DNA of 54,583 nucleotides from Minisyncoccota bacterium (GTDB lineage: Bacteria; Patescibacteriota; Minisyncoccia; Phycocordibacterales; UBA9973): NCBI GenBank assembly GCA_036517215.1, contig DATDXF010000026.1, forward strand, positions 1-54,583, given 5' to 3'. The notes under the pieces are model-generated. The model made no database searches. It was not told the origin of the DNA and worked only from the letters and a program-made list of their open reading frames with translations. This document shows positions 11,772-32,070 of the stretch, one piece after another. The number at the start of each line of letters is the position of its first letter. The stretch's first letter is position 1. Position numbers and translations under genes: made by a program.

Positions 11772-13496
11772 ATGAACTCTCCCGTTCTTAAAATTAAGGA
11801 GAGGCTATCAATTGAAGAAGTAGTCTCTTCTTATATAAAGCTTGACAGGGCAGGCGCGAATTTAAAAGCCAAGTGTCCTTTTCACAACGAAAAGACCCCA
11901 TCTTTCTTTATATCGCCCGACCGCGGGAGCTACTATTGCTTTGGCTGCGGAGCTTCCGGAGACATCTTTACTTTTGTGGAAGAGTTCGAAGGGCTGGACT
12001 TCAAGGGCGCGCTAAAGTTGCTCGCAGACAGGGCCGGAGTTCCGCTCGAGCCCTACAGCCGGGAAGCGGCGGAGAATAAAAGTGAAAAAGAAAAGCTATA
12101 CGAAGCCATGGAAGAGGCGGCGGAGTATTTTGAAAATAATCTGAAAGACCACGAGAATGTCTCTGATTATCTTAAAGTGCGTGGCTTGACCGAAAAAAGC
12201 GTGAAAGAGTTCAGGATTGGTTTTGCTCCGCTTGATTGGCGCCTATTGTATTTTTATCTGCAAAAAAAAGGTTTTAGCGATGACGTAATCGAAAAAGCCG
12301 GACTTGCAAAAAAATCCGAAAAAGGTTTTTATGACAGGTTCCGCGGTAGGATTATGTTTCCGATTGCGGACTCAAGCGGGCGGGTCATAGCGTTTTCCGG
12401 CAGGCTCTTCATTGATGATGAAAAATCGGCTAAATATTTAAACAGTCCGGAAACGCCTATTTTCAGCAAGAATGCGGTTCTTTACGGCATAGATAAAGCC
12501 AAAGATTCCATACGCAAAAATAATTTTTCTATATTGGTTGAAGGGCAGATGGATTTGATACTCTCGCACCAGACAGGCTACCGGAATACGGTCGCGACTT
12601 CCGGGACGGCTTTGTCGGATTCAACCGTTTCCAAAGAGCGGGTCGTAAGCAATCTGGGGCTTATACGCCGGTTGTCGGAGAACCTAGTGCTTGCCTTTGA
12701 CGCGGATAAAGCAGGGGCGAATGCCACTATCCGCGCGGGGAAAATAGCTCTTTCTCTCGGGATGGACGTGAAGGTGGTTGAAATCCCCGAAGGCATCGAC
12801 CCGGCAGACTTGATTAGTAAAACTGGAGCGGATGCTTGGCGTGAGGCTATTAAAAATTCTAAGCACGTCATTGAATTTCTTTTGAATAAGGCTTTGAAAA
12901 ACTTCGGCGTAGATGAACGCAGGGCGGGGAGAGCCATAAAAGAGATGGTACTGCCATTCGTAAGTTCTCTGTCAAGCTCGATAGAAAAAATGCACTTTAT
13001 CAAATTAATAAGCGACAAATCGGGGATAGGGCAGAGCGCTCTCTCGGATGATTTAAAAAAGATTGAGGAGGAGCTGAAGCATGAAAAAGAAGAAATAAAA
13101 GAAGCGGGGGAAGCACAGGCGAAAAAGCGCCGGAAAGACAACGTAGAAAGCGACTTACTCGGCATTGCGCTTTGGCAAGAGACGCTTCCAGAGCCTGTTG
13201 TGGATTTTAAAATGATTTTTGAAAAACTGGGAGAAACGGCGCAAAAGTACAAAGACACGAAAGAAGATTTGATATACAGAGCCGAAGTATTTTATACGAA
13301 TAATGAAAATTTGAAGAAAAGCGTGGAAGAAATGTTTTTTAACCTGGAAGAAGAAAATATAAATGAAGCCATAAATAGAAAAATGACCGAGCTCAAGGGG
13401 GCCGGGGATGAAGATTCGGGAAAAAAGATTTTACAGGAGATAAGTGATTTGAATAAAAAGAAAGAAAATATTAAAAATGGTCGCTTAAAAAAATAA
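11772..13496 (+). CDS. dnaG: DNA primase
   Basis: Zinc finger [30 protein letters not shown], followed by a TOPRIM region ([18 protein letters not shown]). Confidence 0.95.
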
Positions 13497-23700: not shown

Positions 23701-24472
23701 AAAAATAAAACAAAAAAGACTGATAAGAATTGCGCTTTGTGTTGTCGCCCTGTTTTTTTTGTTTTTTTTCCGGACGGAAGTTTCTCGCGGGCTCTCGTCG
23801 GTAAGCCAGGGTATTTTTCGTCCTGTTCTTGTGGCAGGGAATGGAATTGGAGCGAAATTTAAAAGCCTGGGAGCGTATTTTGTTTCCAAAAATTCCCTTT
23901 ACCGGCATAACCAGGAATTGCAAGCAAAGCTGGATTTTGACGAGGCGCGGATGACGAACTACGATTCCTTTGTCGCGGATGCGTCCGCCTTGAGAGAAGT
24001 TCTCGGCAGAAAAAATGAAAAAGTTTCCATGGTGCTCGGAGCTATTTTACAAAAACCAAACCAAAGCCCTTACGACACTTTACTCATCGATATAGGCACA
24101 GAAGAAGGTGTAAACACCGGAAACACCGTCTTTGCCTTGGGAGATGTGCCGGTCGGGCGTATTGCGGAAGCTTACGAACGTTCTTCCAAGGTAATTTTAT
24201 TTTCCAGCGCAGGCGAGAAGACAATGGTATTTGTTTCTTCGCAAGGTCCTTCGATGGAGCTCCTAGGCCGTGGCGGAGGGAATTTTGAAATGATACTGCC
24301 AAAGGATATTACTTTGCAAAAAGGGGACCAGGCAGTTCTGCCCGGACTATCGCCTTATGTGGTTGCCATAGCGGAGACTATAATATCCGACCCGCGGGAT
24401 CCTTTTACCAAGGCGCTCTTAACCAGCCCCGTTAATATACAGGCGATGAAGTTTGTGGAAGTTGCGCTGTAA
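23681..24472 (+). CDS. mreC: Rod-shape-determining protein MreC
   Basis: Overlaps the mreB stop. N-terminal TM segment, coiled segment (NQELQAKLDFDEA), beta-rich C-terminal domain of typical length. Confidence 0.8.
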   Translation: MSYLLDKKIKQKRLIRIALCVVALFFLFFFRTEVSRGLSSVSQGIFRPVLVAGNGIGAKFKSLGAYFVSKNSLYRHNQELQAKLDFDEARMTNYDSFVADASALREVLGRKNEKVSMVLGAILQKPNQSPYDTLLIDIGTEEGVNTGNTVFALGDVPVGRIAEAYERSSKVILFSSAGEKTMVFVSSQGPSMELLGRGGGNFEMILPKDITLQKGDQAVLPGLSPYVVAIAETIISDPRDPFTKALLTSPVNIQAMKFVEVAL

Positions 24473-26280: not shown

Positions 26281-26424
26281 TTGGAATTTAAAATCGAGAA
26301 AAAATTAAAGGGCGGATTGGGTAAGGCGGGGATTATAAAAACCGCCCACGGCTTTACCAAGGCGCTCTTGACTAACCCGGTTAATGTACAGGCGCTAAAA
26401 TTCGTGGAGGTGAAAACAAGGTAG
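26281..26424 (+). pseudogene. Chimeric relic: the first ~24 codons of tgt fused in frame to the last ~23 codons of mreC
   Basis: 26281-26352 aligns to 30832-30903 (tgt 5' end). 26353-26424 aligns to 24401-24472 (mreC 3' end). Both are near-identical with scattered substitutions. There is no ATG. Confidence 0.75.
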
Positions 26425-27955: not shown

Positions 27956-30175
27956 ATGTTTAAACAAAAACTTTTAGTAGTTACTGGTCTTGTCTTAATT
28001 GTGCTTAATTTCCAGACACCGGTTTTTGCAGCCATGACTTTCTCTTCCGTGGCGATCTCGGGTGATACTGCGTCCACCGTAGACGTGGGTGCGGGGAATG
28101 CTTTGTCACTCCAGACGAATAACAATGGCAATATCATAACCGGCACCGGCAATTTCGGCATAGGCACTGGAAGCCCAGGGGAGCTTTTATCGTTGGGTCT
28201 TGCCGGAACCACCAAGGGCGTGATTTCCCTGGCGGGCAACACTTCGGGGAAAATAATAATTCAGCCCGCCGCTGCGGCAGGTGCCTACACACTCACTCTC
28301 CCGACAGACGACGGTACCGCGAGCCAGTTTCTACAGACGGACGGCAACGGCGTATTGACCTGGGCCACACCTTCCGGTTCCGGTAATGCGCTGACAACTA
28401 ATCCCTTGTCTCAATTTGCGGCAACCACCTCATTACAACTCCTAGGTGTTATTTCAGACGAAACTGGTTCTGGAGCACTTGTGTTTGCTACATCGCCGAC
28501 ACTCACAACTCCAAACCTGGGCACTCCAAGTGCGGCTACGTTAACAAATGCGACCGGTTTGCCTATTAGTACTGGTGTATCCGGACTAGGCACTGGCGTA
28601 GCGACATTTCTCGCGACCCCTTCTTCTGCAAACTTAGCGTCCGCAGTGACCGATGAAACCGGTTCAGGCGCGCTGGTATTCGCGACATCTCCGAGCTTTA
28701 CCACTCCTTCTCTCGGCGCGGCCACAGCATCCGGACTGACACTTTCGGGCATTACCGGTTCGACTCAATGCCTGCATGTGGATACGAACGGCGTAGTTTC
28801 CGGCACTGGCTCCGACTGCGGCGCGGGCGGCGGCGCGACTTTAGCGGCAAACACTTTTACCAATACCCAAACAATTAACCCGGCAAATAACGAAGCAGCC
28901 CTGACAATTAACCGCAACACTACTGGAGTAGGAACTATTGCGACAGACAGTGGAAGTACCACTATTACCGGTACCGGAACTAGTTTTCTCTCTCAAGTTC
29001 GCTCAGGTGATACTATTACACCAAGCGGCCAGTCTGTAAGAACGGTCAATTATGTGACGAGCGACACGTCGCTTACCTTGACGGCGAACGCATCGGCCAC
29101 GGCTTCAGGAATAGCATACACTCTAGGTTCGTCCGGTTTCAGTATTTATCCTAATGCTGTTTTCACAATTTCTCCCTCTTCTCCGAGCACTGGCGGAACT
29201 CGCTCGGAAGCATGGGGTAACGGTGCTTCGGTTGCTGCTTCTCTGACTGATAGTCTAGCAGTTGGCTTTGGTGCGTCTGTCACTACTACTGGAGGCGGCA
29301 TAGCTATCGGGCGATCTTCGTTATCTACCCGGGGAGGTATTGCCATAGGCACCAATACCACTTCCAGTGGAATCAGCGGTGCCCTTGCTATATGCAATGC
29401 CTGTACGGTCTCGGGGCAGTCCTCTGTAAGTATTGGTGGCGGGAACGTTACAGGTACTGGTACTATATCAATCGGAGCCCCCGCTACCAGCGTGAGCCGA
29501 TCTATCCTTTTAGGTATCAATGCGGCCGCTTCGGCCGACCATCAATTGGTATTTGGCGGAACGACCGCGTCAGTTAACTACATGACGGATACTTATTTTA
29601 ACAATCCAACCGACTCGTCAGCTACTGGTATAACTTTACACTCATCGGGCGGAAGCGGAACAGACAACGCGGGTTCGGATTTCGGCATAGCAGCCGGAGT
29701 CGGCACGGGTACAGCAGATCCCGGCGATGTTTTCATAAATACCGGCTTTCCAATAGCCTCAGGCACCACCGCGCAACAGTCGGCCAGCCGTACTTACATC
29801 CGGGCGACGCCCAAGACATTGACGGAATCAAGCGCCACCGGAATCACGGACATATCCGTAGCGTCGGGCACCATTACCGGCGGAACTTTGTACTATACCG
29901 TTGAGGCGAATGACGGCACCGATTATCAAGTAATCCGAGGTTCGGTCCCATTTTCAGCCGTAAACAAAGCCGAGACGCTTACGACCACGCTTGGTACGCC
30001 GGTTGAGACCACTACCGCTTCTTCTGGGACGCTTACCGATACGATCACAATCACCACCGGTACGAATGAAATTACATTAAACATTAATGCGGTCAGTTCG
30101 CTTACTCAGACCGTGCTACGCGCCACTTGGAGTGTAGTCCTCGATGGAGGTACCGGCGCCGTAAGCCCTTTATAA
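27956..30175 (+). CDS. Secreted Gly/Thr/Ser-rich tail-fibre-like protein (739 aa)
   Basis: Signal peptide. Two DETGSGALVFATSP(T/S)(L/F)TTP repeats (about 28456-28500 and 28650-28696), which are also present in the 32172 giant protein. Confidence 0.7.
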   Translation: MFKQKLLVVTGLVLIVLNFQTPVFAAMTFSSVAISGDTASTVDVGAGNALSLQTNNNGNIITGTGNFGIGTGSPGELLSLGLAGTTKGVISLAGNTSGKIIIQPAAAAGAYTLTLPTDDGTASQFLQTDGNGVLTWATPSGSGNALTTNPLSQFAATTSLQLLGVISDETGSGALVFATSPTLTTPNLGTPSAATLTNATGLPISTGVSGLGTGVATFLATPSSANLASAVTDETGSGALVFATSPSFTTPSLGAATASGLTLSGITGSTQCLHVDTNGVVSGTGSDCGAGGGATLAANTFTNTQTINPANNEAALTINRNTTGVGTIATDSGSTTITGTGTSFLSQVRSGDTITPSGQSVRTVNYVTSDTSLTLTANASATASGIAYTLGSSGFSIYPNAVFTISPSSPSTGGTRSEAWGNGASVAASLTDSLAVGFGASVTTTGGGIAIGRSSLSTRGGIAIGTNTTSSGISGALAICNACTVSGQSSVSIGGGNVTGTGTISIGAPATSVSRSILLGINAAASADHQLVFGGTTASVNYMTDTYFNNPTDSSATGITLHSSGGSGTDNAGSDFGIAAGVGTGTADPGDVFINTGFPIASGTTAQQSASRTYIRATPKTLTESSATGITDISVASGTITGGTLYYTVEANDGTDYQVIRGSVPFSAVNKAETLTTTLGTPVETTTASSGTLTDTITITTGTNEITLNINAVSSLTQTVLRATWSVVLDGGTGAVSPL

Positions 30176-30816
30176 TTCTGGCGCTGGGCGATAGCAAGAC
30201 AGCGCCGGACTCTCAAACTTGGGCCTATATATTGGCTCAATCCATAAAGACGACTGCCAATACTCAATGGCGAGCGATTGAACTTGGCCGTGGCGGATAT
30301 AGGGTTGATAACACTCTAAATAATCTCACAACGAATAACGACGGCCAGTTTTCTTCCGCCATTATTCCTAGTGCTCTTACTAATTGTCAAACAAGCACCA
30401 ATTCCCTGGACCATTGCCGAGAAGCCCTTAACGGTGCTCAACCTGAGTACATACTTATCAATCTCGGGGTCAATGATGTGGGATTTACGCCGCCCTGGTC
30501 ACTGCCCAACCAGACTACCTGGCAGAATAATTATATTGCGATTTTAGACGCTCTGAACGCACAATGGCCTGATTCGCTCATTTACATTACCAAACCCTGG
30601 AAGGCGCAGAGCGGGGGAGATGATGCTGTGTGGGACACCATGGCCGGATGGATAGATAACGTAGTTGCGGCGCGTCCGGCGTTTACCTTTGTAGGGGATG
30701 ACGAGCGGGCATGGTTTGAGCCGAACACGGCTACGTATTCCGACGACGACATTCATTATAATGCCGAAGGACAGGCCGCTGCCGCAGACGCCAAGCAAAC
30801 GGCGTTGGGCTACTAG
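30127..30816 (+). CDS. SGNH/GDSL-family hydrolase (esterase) domain ORF; no convincing own start or signal peptide
   Basis: Block I ILALGDSKT and block V DDDIHYNAEG (DxxH). The only in-frame start is TTG at 30127, which overlaps the upstream gene by 49 nt. The frame is -1 relative to the fibre gene. Confidence 0.65.
   Translation: MECSPRWRYRRRKPFIILALGDSKTAPDSQTWAYILAQSIKTTANTQWRAIELGRGGYRVDNTLNNLTTNNDGQFSSAIIPSALTNCQTSTNSLDHCREALNGAQPEYILINLGVNDVGFTPPWSLPNQTTWQNNYIAILDALNAQWPDSLIYITKPWKAQSGGDDAVWDTMAGWIDNVVAARPAFTFVGDDERAWFEPNTATYSDDDIHYNAEGQAAAADAKQTALGY
30166..30206 (+). promoter_or_regulatory. Candidate programmed -1 ribosomal frameshift signal
   Basis: Slippery heptamer C_CCT_TTA (30166-30172) in the fibre-gene frame, directly before its TAA stop (30173-30175). 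A 7-nt spacer follows, then stem GGCGCTG (30180-30186) / CAGCGCC (30200-30206). Confidence 0.4.
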
Positions 30817-30831
30817 GAGCTGCTACAAGGA

Positions 30832-32070
30832 ATGTATTTTAAAATTGAGAAAAAATTAAAGGGCGGATTGGGCAGGGCGGGGATTATAAAAACCGCACAT
30901 GGAGAAATACATACTCCGGCTTTTGTAGCTGTCGGGACAAAGGCGACAGTAAAATCGCTCAATCCAGAACAAGTCCGCGAGACGGGCACAGAAATCGTGC
31001 TTGGAAATACATACCACCTATATCTCCAGCCCGGAGATGAAATAGTCCGTGACGCAGGGGGTATCGGTAGGTTTATGAATTGGCCCGGTCCGACGATGAC
31101 GGACTCAGGCGGTTTCCAGGTTTTTTCTCTGGGCGCTGCTTACGGAAAAGATATTTCCAAAATAACCAAAGTCACCGACCCGTCGCTCCTGATTCCTGAA
31201 CGTTTTGACGATTCCGACGCGCCGCGTCTCGCGAAAATAGGGCAAGACGGGGTTTCCTTCAAGTCGCACCTAGACGGCAGTATTCACTACATTACTCCCG
31301 AAAAATCAATCCAAATCCAGCACAACCTGGGCGCGGATATAATTTTTGCTTTTGATGAATGCACCAGCCCGGCGGAAGATTTGAAATACCAGGAAGAAGC
31401 TCTAGAGCGGACGCACCGCTGGGCAGAGAGGAGCTTGGAAGAACATTTAAAGCTGGAGAATCAGAAACAAGCTCGTTCTCAGATTCCCGTCTCTCCTCAA
31501 GCCTTGTTCGGTATTGTCCAAGGCGGCAGGGAAGAGTCATTACGTAAAAAATCCGCTAAAATTATTGCCGAAACAAATGTGAACGGGCAATATTTTGACG
31601 GCTTCGGCATTGGCGGCTCTTTCGCCAAAGAAGACATGTCTACGGCTGTTAAGTGGGTAAGCGGAATTCTGCCGGAAGACAAGCCCAGGCATCTCTTGGG
31701 CATTGGCGAGCCGGAAGATTTATTCATGGGGGTGGAAAACGGCGTAGATCTTTTTGATTGTGTTTTACCCACTCGGCTCGGCAGAAACGGCACCTTGTAT
31801 ACGAAATCGGGGAAAATAATAATAATGAATACCAGATTTAGGGATGATTTTTCCCCGGTGGAAAAAGATTGCGGATGTTATACATGCAAGAACTACACGA
31901 GGAGTTACATAGCCCACCTTTTTCACGGGAAGGAGATGCTCGCGGGCACCCTGGCTTCAATACATAATTTGTATTTCATAGTTAATCTGGTAAAAAATAT
32001 CCGTCAGTCAATTTTGGATGGAAAATTTCAAGAATTTAAGGAATATTTTATGAAGGAATATACAAGCTGA
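30832..32070 (+). CDS. tgt: tRNA-guanine transglycosylase (queuine tRNA-ribosyltransferase)
   Basis: TPAFVAVGT, DSGGFQVFSL, LFGIVQGG, LLGIGEPEDL, FDCVLPTR, and the zinc site CGCYTCKNYTRSYIAHL. Confidence 0.95.
   Translation: MYFKIEKKLKGGLGRAGIIKTAHGEIHTPAFVAVGTKATVKSLNPEQVRETGTEIVLGNTYHLYLQPGDEIVRDAGGIGRFMNWPGPTMTDSGGFQVFSLGAAYGKDISKITKVTDPSLLIPERFDDSDAPRLAKIGQDGVSFKSHLDGSIHYITPEKSIQIQHNLGADIIFAFDECTSPAEDLKYQEEALERTHRWAERSLEEHLKLENQKQARSQIPVSPQALFGIVQGGREESLRKKSAKIIAETNVNGQYFDGFGIGGSFAKEDMSTAVKWVSGILPEDKPRHLLGIGEPEDLFMGVENGVDLFDCVLPTRLGRNGTLYTKSGKIIIMNTRFRDDFSPVEKDCGCYTCKNYTRSYIAHLFHGKEMLAGTLASIHNLYFIVNLVKNIRQSILDGKFQEFKEYFMKEYTS

Follow-up and report, generated by a model that had tools for sequence, protein, structure and literature searches.

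A candidate programmed −1 frameshift joining an SGNH esterase domain to a putatively secreted fibre-like protein in a Minisyncoccota bacterium

How is an esterase domain translated when its reading frame offers almost no start codon? The question is raised by two overlapping open reading frames (ORFs) on the forward strand of a 54,583-nt stretch of DNA from a Minisyncoccota bacterium (contig DATDXF010000026.1, positions 1–54,583), referred to below as the window. The first ORF (27956–30175, ending with TAA at 30173–30175) is a fibre-like gene whose product, predicted to be secreted, has 739 residues. The second lies in the −1 frame relative to it and is open from TTG 30127 to TAG 30814–30816 (229 codons); from position 30172 to 30816 it encodes an SGNH/GDSL esterase of 214 codons (IILALGDSK...TALGY, then TAG) with intact Gly, GxND and DxxH blocks. 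As originally predicted, this ORF has no signal peptide and no canonical start except the TTG 49 nt inside the fibre gene; between the fibre stop and the GDS motif (30187–30195) there are only ATA, ATT and CTG codons, and no ATG, GTG or TTG. The comparative sequence analysis reported here makes it probable that the esterase is fused to the fibre by a programmed −1 frameshift on the heptamer C_CCU_UUA.

The fibre gene ends with GTA AGC CCT TTA TAA, so that its last two sense codons form the slippery heptamer C_CCU_UUA (30166–30172) in the correct phase, with the 0-frame stop TAA directly 3' of it, a 'shifty stop' layout. This is the only in-frame X_XXY_YYZ sequence in the entire 739-codon gene. 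The heptamer and its stop are located as the original prediction had it, as are the reading PFIILALGDS in the −1 frame and the stem GGCGCTG (30180–30186)/CAGCGCC (30200–30206), with its 13-nt loop and 7-nt spacer. The stem is in fact longer: the G+C core (30180–30206) extends to a 10-bp stem (UCUGGCGCUG/CAGCGCCGGA, 30177–30209) that starts 4–7 nt after the heptamer and has a predicted stability of −20.4 kcal/mol (z = −2.8 versus shuffled sequences), making it a candidate 3' stimulator. In addition, a Shine–Dalgarno (SD)-like GGAGGT inside the fibre gene (30146–30151) might act as an upstream stimulator of the dnaX type: it lies 14 nt before the heptamer, and 12 nt before the P-site codon if CCU occupies the A site. 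The prediction had counted the lack of any SD sequence in favor of frameshifting; this part does not hold, although the GGAGGT is located 20–27 nt upstream of any candidate start. The argument carries little weight anyway, since the host hardly uses such sequences: an SD-like run (of the GGAG, GAGG or AGGA type) is present at most 25 nt upstream of only 6 of the 32 long ORFs of the window. The gene leaders of the window are AT-rich and its starts almost always ATG, and translation initiation in the host organism appears, on this basis, to be SD-independent.

The original prediction proposed a comparison of orthologues, and in such a comparison the motif proved to be kept at synonymous sites in eight lineages and absent from two fibre homologues that lack an SGNH gene. 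The eight lineages, whose DNA was read, consist of the window and L001, L002/3, L004/8, L019/20, L024/25, L028 and L029 (for a further relative, P0027, only the gene call is available, and it has the same 49-nt overlap). No gap interrupts their alignment over a region that reaches about 60 nt upstream and about 45 nt downstream of the junction. Their 0-frame tails read LDGG[TS]G.V[STN]P(L)-stop, and the −1 frame [KNL]P[FL][VI][IV][LV]ALGDSK. The codon preceding Pro is AGC, ACC, TCC or AAC, so that the residue varies (S, T or N) and the third base is C in all eight lineages. The Pro codon itself is CCT in 8/8, even though CCT makes up 4–24% of the Pro codons of those genes (product of the frequencies, 1.4e-8), and the Leu that follows it is encoded by TTG or TTA in the six lineages that have one, versus a usage of 10–33%. 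Fourfold-degenerate sites a few codons away are near saturation, with a third-base entropy of about 1.9 bits, and a second Pro, eight codons into the SGNH domain, is encoded by CCG, CCC or CCA, never by CCT. Altogether, C CCT T is kept in the eight lineages, and in nine if L050 (see below) is counted. In L028 and L029 the stop directly follows CCT (A_AAC_CCT-TGA or -TAG); this reduces the invariant core to C_CCU_U, with the stop adjacent or one codon away. TAA, TGA and TAG are each found as the stop at these −1 junctions, which excludes readthrough or stop reassignment for this group. As to the hairpin, it is present in most relatives, with z values ranging from −0.3 to −2.8; five of its pairs are constant across all, or almost all, of the eight lineages, and changes at the base of the stem mostly keep the pairing.

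The two controls, L026 and L027, are fibre homologues that have the same C-terminal domain and no SGNH gene. They end with GAC GGC GGA ACC GGA GTG GTG ACT CCG TGA and GAC GGC GGC ACG GCG AAT CCC TCG GCA CTC TAA, respectively, and neither the slippery heptamer nor GGAGG was found in them. The Gly-Gly pair located 12–15 nt upstream of the motif is encoded by GGA GGN or GGG GGG in the eight SGNH-linked lineages, versus GGC GGA or GGC GGC in the controls. Because there are only two controls and the host is SD-poor, the case for the SD-like element as a stimulator is suggestive. Note that in all eight lineages CTC encodes the Leu located nine codons before CCT and that, together with the preceding C, this codon gives CCUC-GAUG-GAGG (window 30139–30150), a mini-hairpin of 4 bp in which the SD-like GGAGG would be sequestered.

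The arrangement has the same three parts as the frameshift site of E. coli dnaX, namely an X_XXY_YYZ heptamer with an SD-like element upstream and a hairpin a few bases downstream. In dnaX, the heptamer is A_AAA_AAG, the SD sequence is 10 nt upstream and the shifted product is the shorter one. Here, by contrast, the heptamer is C_CCU_UUR with an adjacent 0-frame stop, the SD-like element lies 12–15 nt upstream, the shifted product would be the longer one and the host is SD-poor. The SD-like element of dnaX works best 10–14 nt before the P-site codon, as stated by a preprint that cites Larsen 1994 for it (bioRxiv 10.1101/2020.04.16.045807). C_CC.U_UU.A, C_CC.U_UU.G and C_CC.U_UU.U are among the 18 heptamers that shift at more than 0.1% in E. 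coli without stimulators and are avoided in genes, and C_CC.U is one of the six tetramers that responded strongly to a downstream structure in the same survey (PMC4066793). These data fit the conservation pattern, in which the pairing of tRNA-Pro with C_CCU would be the constant element.

The −1-frame product is a member of the SGNH family by sequence and by predicted structure. It matches Pfam PF13472 (1.5e-11, 45.6 bits for a cut-off of 32.9) as well as PF00657, and the Pfam GDSL models begin at residues 17–19 of the ORF that opens at the TTG, that is, at the slip site. The conserved SGNH blocks I (GDS), II (Gly), III (GxND) and V (DxxH) are all present in the window: G9, D10, S11, G45, G102, D105, D195 and H198, which are invariant, and N104, which is nearly so. 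An AlphaFold2 model of the −1-frame translation from Lys 30163, built with a 21-sequence alignment, gives a confident SGNH fold, with a mean predicted local distance difference test score (pLDDT) of 92.4. In this model strand β1 consists of residues F3–G9 (F-I-I-L-A-L-G, pLDDT about 91), which are encoded across the heptamer and the 0-frame stop; these residues therefore belong to the predicted fold. The best Foldseek matches are the GDSL/carbohydrate esterases 8ik1, 2wao and 7ddy, with TM-scores of 0.6–0.7. Acetyl-xylan esterases are among the nearest solved structures, so the model points to glycan O-deacetylation as the function. A sequence search of the PDB, a search of the GTDB species genomes and a tblastn search with the window's SGNH sequence against 50,697 GenBank phage records gave no match.

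From the junction, its conservation and the fold, we infer the slippage itself and the following course of events. Most ribosomes would terminate at TAA 30173 and give the plain 739-residue fibre, whereas a minority would slip back one base on C_CCU_UUA. The slip would likely consist of tRNA-Pro moving its pairing from CCU to CCC, with or without a concomitant slip of tRNA-Leu, on a ribosome held by the adjacent stop, by the hairpin at 30177–30209 and perhaps by pairing of the rRNA with the upstream GGAGG. The slipped ribosomes would continue to the end of the esterase frame, yielding a protein of about 953 residues (...GAVSPL-IILALGDSK...), the C-terminal 214 of which would form an SGNH carbohydrate esterase. 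The junction peptide of the original prediction thus keeps its IILALGDS run and changes just before it: canonical tandem slippage gives ...AVSPL-IILALGDSK, with the Leu retained, not ...VSPFIIL. A tandem or P-site slip would yield the tryptic junction peptide ATWSVVLDGGTGAVSPLIILALGDSK, and the SPF variant (...SPFIILALGDSK) would arise only if tRNA-Pro slipped before the A site was filled. How often ribosomes slip would determine how many subunits bear the esterase relative to plain ones. Since the esterase has no signal peptide, fusion to the fibre would be its export route: the signal peptide of the Sec-exported fibre would carry it to the surface, where its likely role would be O-deacetylation of a surface glycan on a target or partner cell.

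How is the domain joined to other proteins across its family? When 1.84 billion representative proteins were searched with a profile, 1042 relatives were obtained. Single-ORF fusions, which the original prediction had also suggested looking for, are common: 61 of 148 representatives (those analysed among the 150 listed first) are proteins of 300–810 residues with the SGNH domain at the extreme C-terminus, and direct fusions were also seen at several loci (L006/10/32, L014, L033, L034, L039, L040, L041/42, L043 and L051). In the 69 sequences that extend upstream of GDS, a strong preference for hydrophobic residues is seen at positions −4, −3 and −1. A natural fusion with the window's own fibre type was not found among these relatives, the N-terminal parts of L014, L006 and P0059 not being detectably related to it. 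At the sequence level, then, the fused relatives show that the SGNH domain is a C-terminal module, not that the window's fibre is fused to it. Other members (L013, P0077, P0104, P0111, P0119, P0184 and P0190) stand alone and have their own signal peptide. The combination that the prediction had named as contrary to it, an independent SGNH gene with its own signal peptide and no heptamer, was seen only in L013, in which a GTG start overlaps the upstream stop and is followed by MSLVLAVLLQISFASG..., and which is not of the window's junction type. The relatives of the SGNH protein at 36–67% identity are automatically called from 1–5 residues before GDS or from downstream of it. Many gene calls (L019:3501, L028:2501, P0005, P0006, P0010–P0015 and P0017) start at an ATG inside the domain, past GDS, so that the catalytic serine is lost; these internal-ATG calls are a systematic annotation error for the family.

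In about 15 lineages, the SGNH domain is in frame with a long upstream ORF behind a single TGA, mostly TGA-C (L005/L030, L009, L031, L011, L007/L012, L015, L016/L017, L018, L021, L022/L023, L036, L037, L038, L044/L045 and L046/L047/L049). Between the TGA and the Gly codon of GDS lie 12, 15, 18, 24, 33, 45, 51 or 57 nt; in L036, L037 and L038 this interval is devoid of ATG, GTG and TTG. The captured N-termini of the upstream ORFs (L007, L015 and L016) bear signal peptides. Elsewhere in these contigs TGA serves as a normal stop, including at the end of the SGNH ORFs. Judged by sequence, the in-frame junctions look like programmed UGA readthrough. The spacers of L021 and L022 are 16–19 codons long, Pro/Thr-rich and differ by a 3-nt indel.

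Three further junctions involve a change of frame on other motifs. In L048 the upstream ORF ends with AGT TTT TTC TGA (U_UUU_UUC) and in L050 with AGC CCT TTT TGA (C_CCU_UUU), the latter followed by a different, 12-codon linker; in both cases the SGNH domain is in the −1 frame. In L052/L053, it is in the +1 frame behind TCT CTT TGA C (L052:1240–1260), that is, CUU_UGA_C, and no SD sequence was found 3 nt upstream of the CUU in L052. CUU_UGA_C is the +1 frameshift site of prfB, which encodes release factor 2 (RF2), and UGA readthrough is how the A1 protein of phage Qβ is made. The exact prfB sequence is thus shared by L052/L053 and the in-frame TGA by about 15 relatives; both are features of relatives, not of the window. 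Altogether, the DNA fetched contains 403 distinct ORF ends, 12 of which consist of X_XXY_YYZ followed by a stop. All ten fibre-to-SGNH −1 junctions end in this way, versus 2 of the 393 other ORF ends, an excess over the chance expectation. Shared ancestry lowers the number of independent events, yet at least three different motifs are involved. One of the two other ends belongs to dnaG in the window (13487–13496), where A_AAA_AAA precedes TAA, 8 nt before the rpoD start, and is probably just an AT-rich gene end.

The most serious alternative to a frameshift is that ribosomes terminating on the fibre gene re-initiate nearby, so that two proteins are made. A free SGNH protein of about 23 kDa would then start at GTG or TTG in the relatives and at a near-cognate ATT (30175) or CTG (30178) in the window; it might bind the fibre non-covalently, and the slippery-looking sequence would be functionless. 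We regard such coupled re-initiation alone as unlikely, though the two processes, slippage and re-initiation, could operate together. Several observations weigh against the frameshift, some of them directly in favor of coupling. A GTG or TTG is found at codon −3 or −4 before GDS in seven of the eight lineages, the exception being the window; NTG occurs at −3 in all eight (CTG in the window) and GTG at −4 in three. The stop–start overlaps GTGA (L004), TTGA (L028) and TAGTG (L024), which are typical of translational coupling, also yield the −1 frame. The third base of codon −3, G in 8/8, is as compatible with a start codon as with the first G–C pair of the stem. Among the first nine in-frame TGA loci examined, five have an ATG 1–4 codons before GDS (Met occupies these positions in about 20% of the fused homologues). 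Covariation in the hairpin is weak, with a double change in one pair only, because the arms lie in conserved coding sequence, for the peptide LALGDSK.AP. The host barely uses SD sequences, so GGAGG may be functionless there; the tetramers U_UUA and U_UUG shift weakly in the A site in E. coli (PMC4066793); and the eight lineages share ancestry, so that the counts overstate their independence. Besides, gene callers annotate many members as M(x)0-3GDSK, and translation beginning at −4 or −3 would preserve a β1 strand of four residues.

Coupling nevertheless leaves much unexplained, in particular the invariant third-base C and the rare CCT and TTR codons of the eight lineages, the presence of U_UUU_UUC, C_CCU_UUU and CUU_UGA_C at independent junctions, and the TGA spacers, which are always multiples of three and in L036–L038 contain no start at all. 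A free SGNH protein would be without a signal peptide, whereas the true standalone members carry one. Finally, neither of the canonical codons survives in the window (ATA ATT CTG), where the esterase is intact, and the candidate start would lie inside a −20 kcal/mol hairpin.

The loss of these codons may also be taken as a sign of decay: the locus would be a phage-derived cassette captured by the chromosome, in which the start was lost (GTG to ATA, TTG to CTG) and the SGNH domain is not expressed. The window is indeed the sole lineage of the eight without a canonical start near GDS, and the locus adjoins a duplication scar among housekeeping genes. Such a remnant is, however, highly improbable given that the ORF is intact over 214 codons with all its catalytic blocks, that the predicted fold has high confidence and that the identical protein is found on five contigs and in four metagenome runs (groundwater and soil), with heptamer, stop and hairpin all kept. 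A true start at TTG 30127 (30127–30129), the only canonical start codon in the SGNH frame and the one chosen by automatic calls here and in P0027, giving a 49-nt overlap with the fibre gene, is harder still to believe: this TTG is a by-product of the 0-frame codons ACT TGG (Thr-Trp) and does not occur in L001 and L002, which have Tyr at this residue; the added peptide, ECSPRWRYRRRK, is Arg-rich, out-of-frame, unconserved, not a signal peptide and outside the Pfam domain; and the leader upstream of it is not AT-rich.

Four further candidates were rejected. An assembly or sequencing error at the junction is ruled out by the identity of the junction sequence, with no indel variant, in contigs of four DNA metagenome runs from groundwater and soil and by an arrangement common to eight lineages. 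An alternative code or a reassigned stop does not account for the occurrence of TAA, TGA and TAG at the −1 junctions, nor for the use of TGA as a normal stop in the in-frame loci; transcriptional slippage is unlikely on CCCTTT, which contains no long homopolymer; and dual coding from an upstream start in the −1 frame finds no conserved start, the upstream −1 peptide only mirroring the 0-frame sequence.

What kind of protein would carry the esterase? The fibre protein is Gly/Thr/Ser-rich and its C-terminus reads ...LDGGTGAVSPL-TAA. Its match to a PHROG tail-fibre family is weak and confined to residues 325–389. Its C-terminal region of about 180 residues is 61–62% identical to P0024 and P0026, which come from phage-like contigs, and the contigs of such relatives also bear portal, HNH, VanY and β-helix genes. 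Its N-terminus is a predicted Sec signal peptide, identified by eye (MFKQKLLVVTGLVLIVLNFQTPVFA, with A as the next residue; 27956–28033), and the fibre homologues P0024–P0028 and many others likewise begin with signal peptides. Sec signal peptides start the fibre-like proteins P0024–P0063 and the upstream ORFs of L007, L015 and L016, and the contigs of these proteins have portal, HNH and endolysin genes. In many of the fibre-like proteins, a Gln directly follows the predicted cleavage site, a Bacteroidota-type pattern. The carriers thus combine phage-type neighbours (portal, HNH, VanY) and a weak PHROG match, yet they have Sec signal peptides, which is odd for virion proteins, and the copy in the window is chromosomal.

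The window is bacterial chromosomal DNA, not a phage, as its genes show: rpoB, rpoC, dnaG, rpoD and mreB, in addition to tgt and a gene for a class II aminoacyl-tRNA synthetase. The description of the fibre gene as a phage tail gene in the original prediction therefore needs amending: it is valid by homology, but this copy is chromosomal and encodes a secreted protein. On one side of the fibre–SGNH block, positions 26281–26424 are a chimera with a tgt head and an mreC tail: a 70-nt direct repeat (26282–26351 versus 30833–30902, 90% identical) copies the 5' end of tgt, and the next 70 nt or so after 26351 copy the 3' end of mreC (about 24404–24472). We read the chimera as a duplication scar, not as an att site; the block is flanked by this scar and by the intact tgt.

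SGNH O-acetyl esterase domains occur in frame in phage tailspikes and fibres, for example in the deacetylating tailspike of phage G7C. The proposed fibre–SGNH protein would be similar in placing an SGNH esterase on a receptor-binding appendage, presumably for the deacetylation of surface polysaccharides, and different in that G7C-type tailspikes are ordinary single-ORF proteins. Closer parallels come from recoded C-terminal extensions, which have been described for gene 10 of phage T3, the capsid and major tail proteins of Lactobacillus phage A2 and Listeria phages A118, A500 and PSA (PMC5009743). As in these, the shift would take place at the very 3' end of the gene and give a minority product with an extra C-terminal domain. 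Immunoglobulin-like (Ig-like) domains are found on phage structural proteins via −1 or +1 shifts or in frame, as the review PMC5009743 summarizes Fraser et al. 2006; this is generally explained by a mobile domain that may land in any frame, recoding then rescuing it (PMC5009743). The SGNH family likewise occurs directly fused, in frame behind a TGA, in the −1 frame and, in one case, in the +1 frame, on different carriers. It differs from the Ig-like case in several respects: the domain is a catalytic esterase, not an adhesion domain; the carrier is a fibre-like protein with a signal peptide, not a capsid or tail-tube protein; the family adds a class with in-frame TGA; and the window's copy is on a bacterial chromosome. 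Another conserved −1 slip near the end of a morphogenesis gene, with a fixed ratio of short to long product, is that of lambda G/GT (PMC5009743); these proteins, which have no sequence relationship to the fibre–SGNH pair, are a chaperone pair absent from the virion, whereas the long form here would be an enzyme-bearing surface fibre. In the literature on frameshifting or readthrough in tail fibres with SGNH domains, we found no description of the fibre–SGNH arrangement, and a text search for CCCUUUA returned microRNA papers only.

By analogy, we tentatively propose, with slightly less than even confidence, that a mobile SGNH cassette joins the C-termini of secreted phage-type fibres by whichever recoding route fits the frame in which it lands and that the window contains a copy captured by a bacterium of the Candidate Phyla Radiation (CPR) type. 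The routes would be −1 slippage on C_CCU_UUN or U_UUU_UUC at a shifty stop, +1 slippage on CUU_UGA_C, leaky readthrough of TGA-C and plain fusion. Each fibre gene would yield a fixed mix of plain and enzyme-armed subunits, the enzyme reaching the surface only as a passenger of the fibre. If so, this would be the first case in which programmed recoding equips a receptor-binding appendage with a catalytic domain, and the interchangeable use of three recoding mechanisms within a single protein family would be rare.

The logic of the fibre–SGNH arrangement is already known from the recoded C-terminal extensions of phages; what is new is the catalytic domain, the secreted carrier, the TGA class and the location of one copy on the chromosome of a small-genome bacterium. 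A real slip would mean that the whole family is misannotated by automatic pipelines, which split a two-product gene into a 'hypothetical protein' and a truncated 'lipase', often without its catalytic serine. Frameshifting in phage structural genes would then extend from Ig-like adhesion domains to an enzyme on a receptor-binding fibre, and recoding would be tied to protein export, since only the fused form has a signal peptide. The family is a natural experiment, in which one domain is joined by −1 or +1 frameshifting, TGA readthrough or direct fusion, and could be used to address how recoding signals originate after domain shuffling and how the ratio of products is tuned. For CPR-type bacteria, a phage-derived surface fibre with a glycan-deacetylating tip would be a possible tool for attachment to a host.

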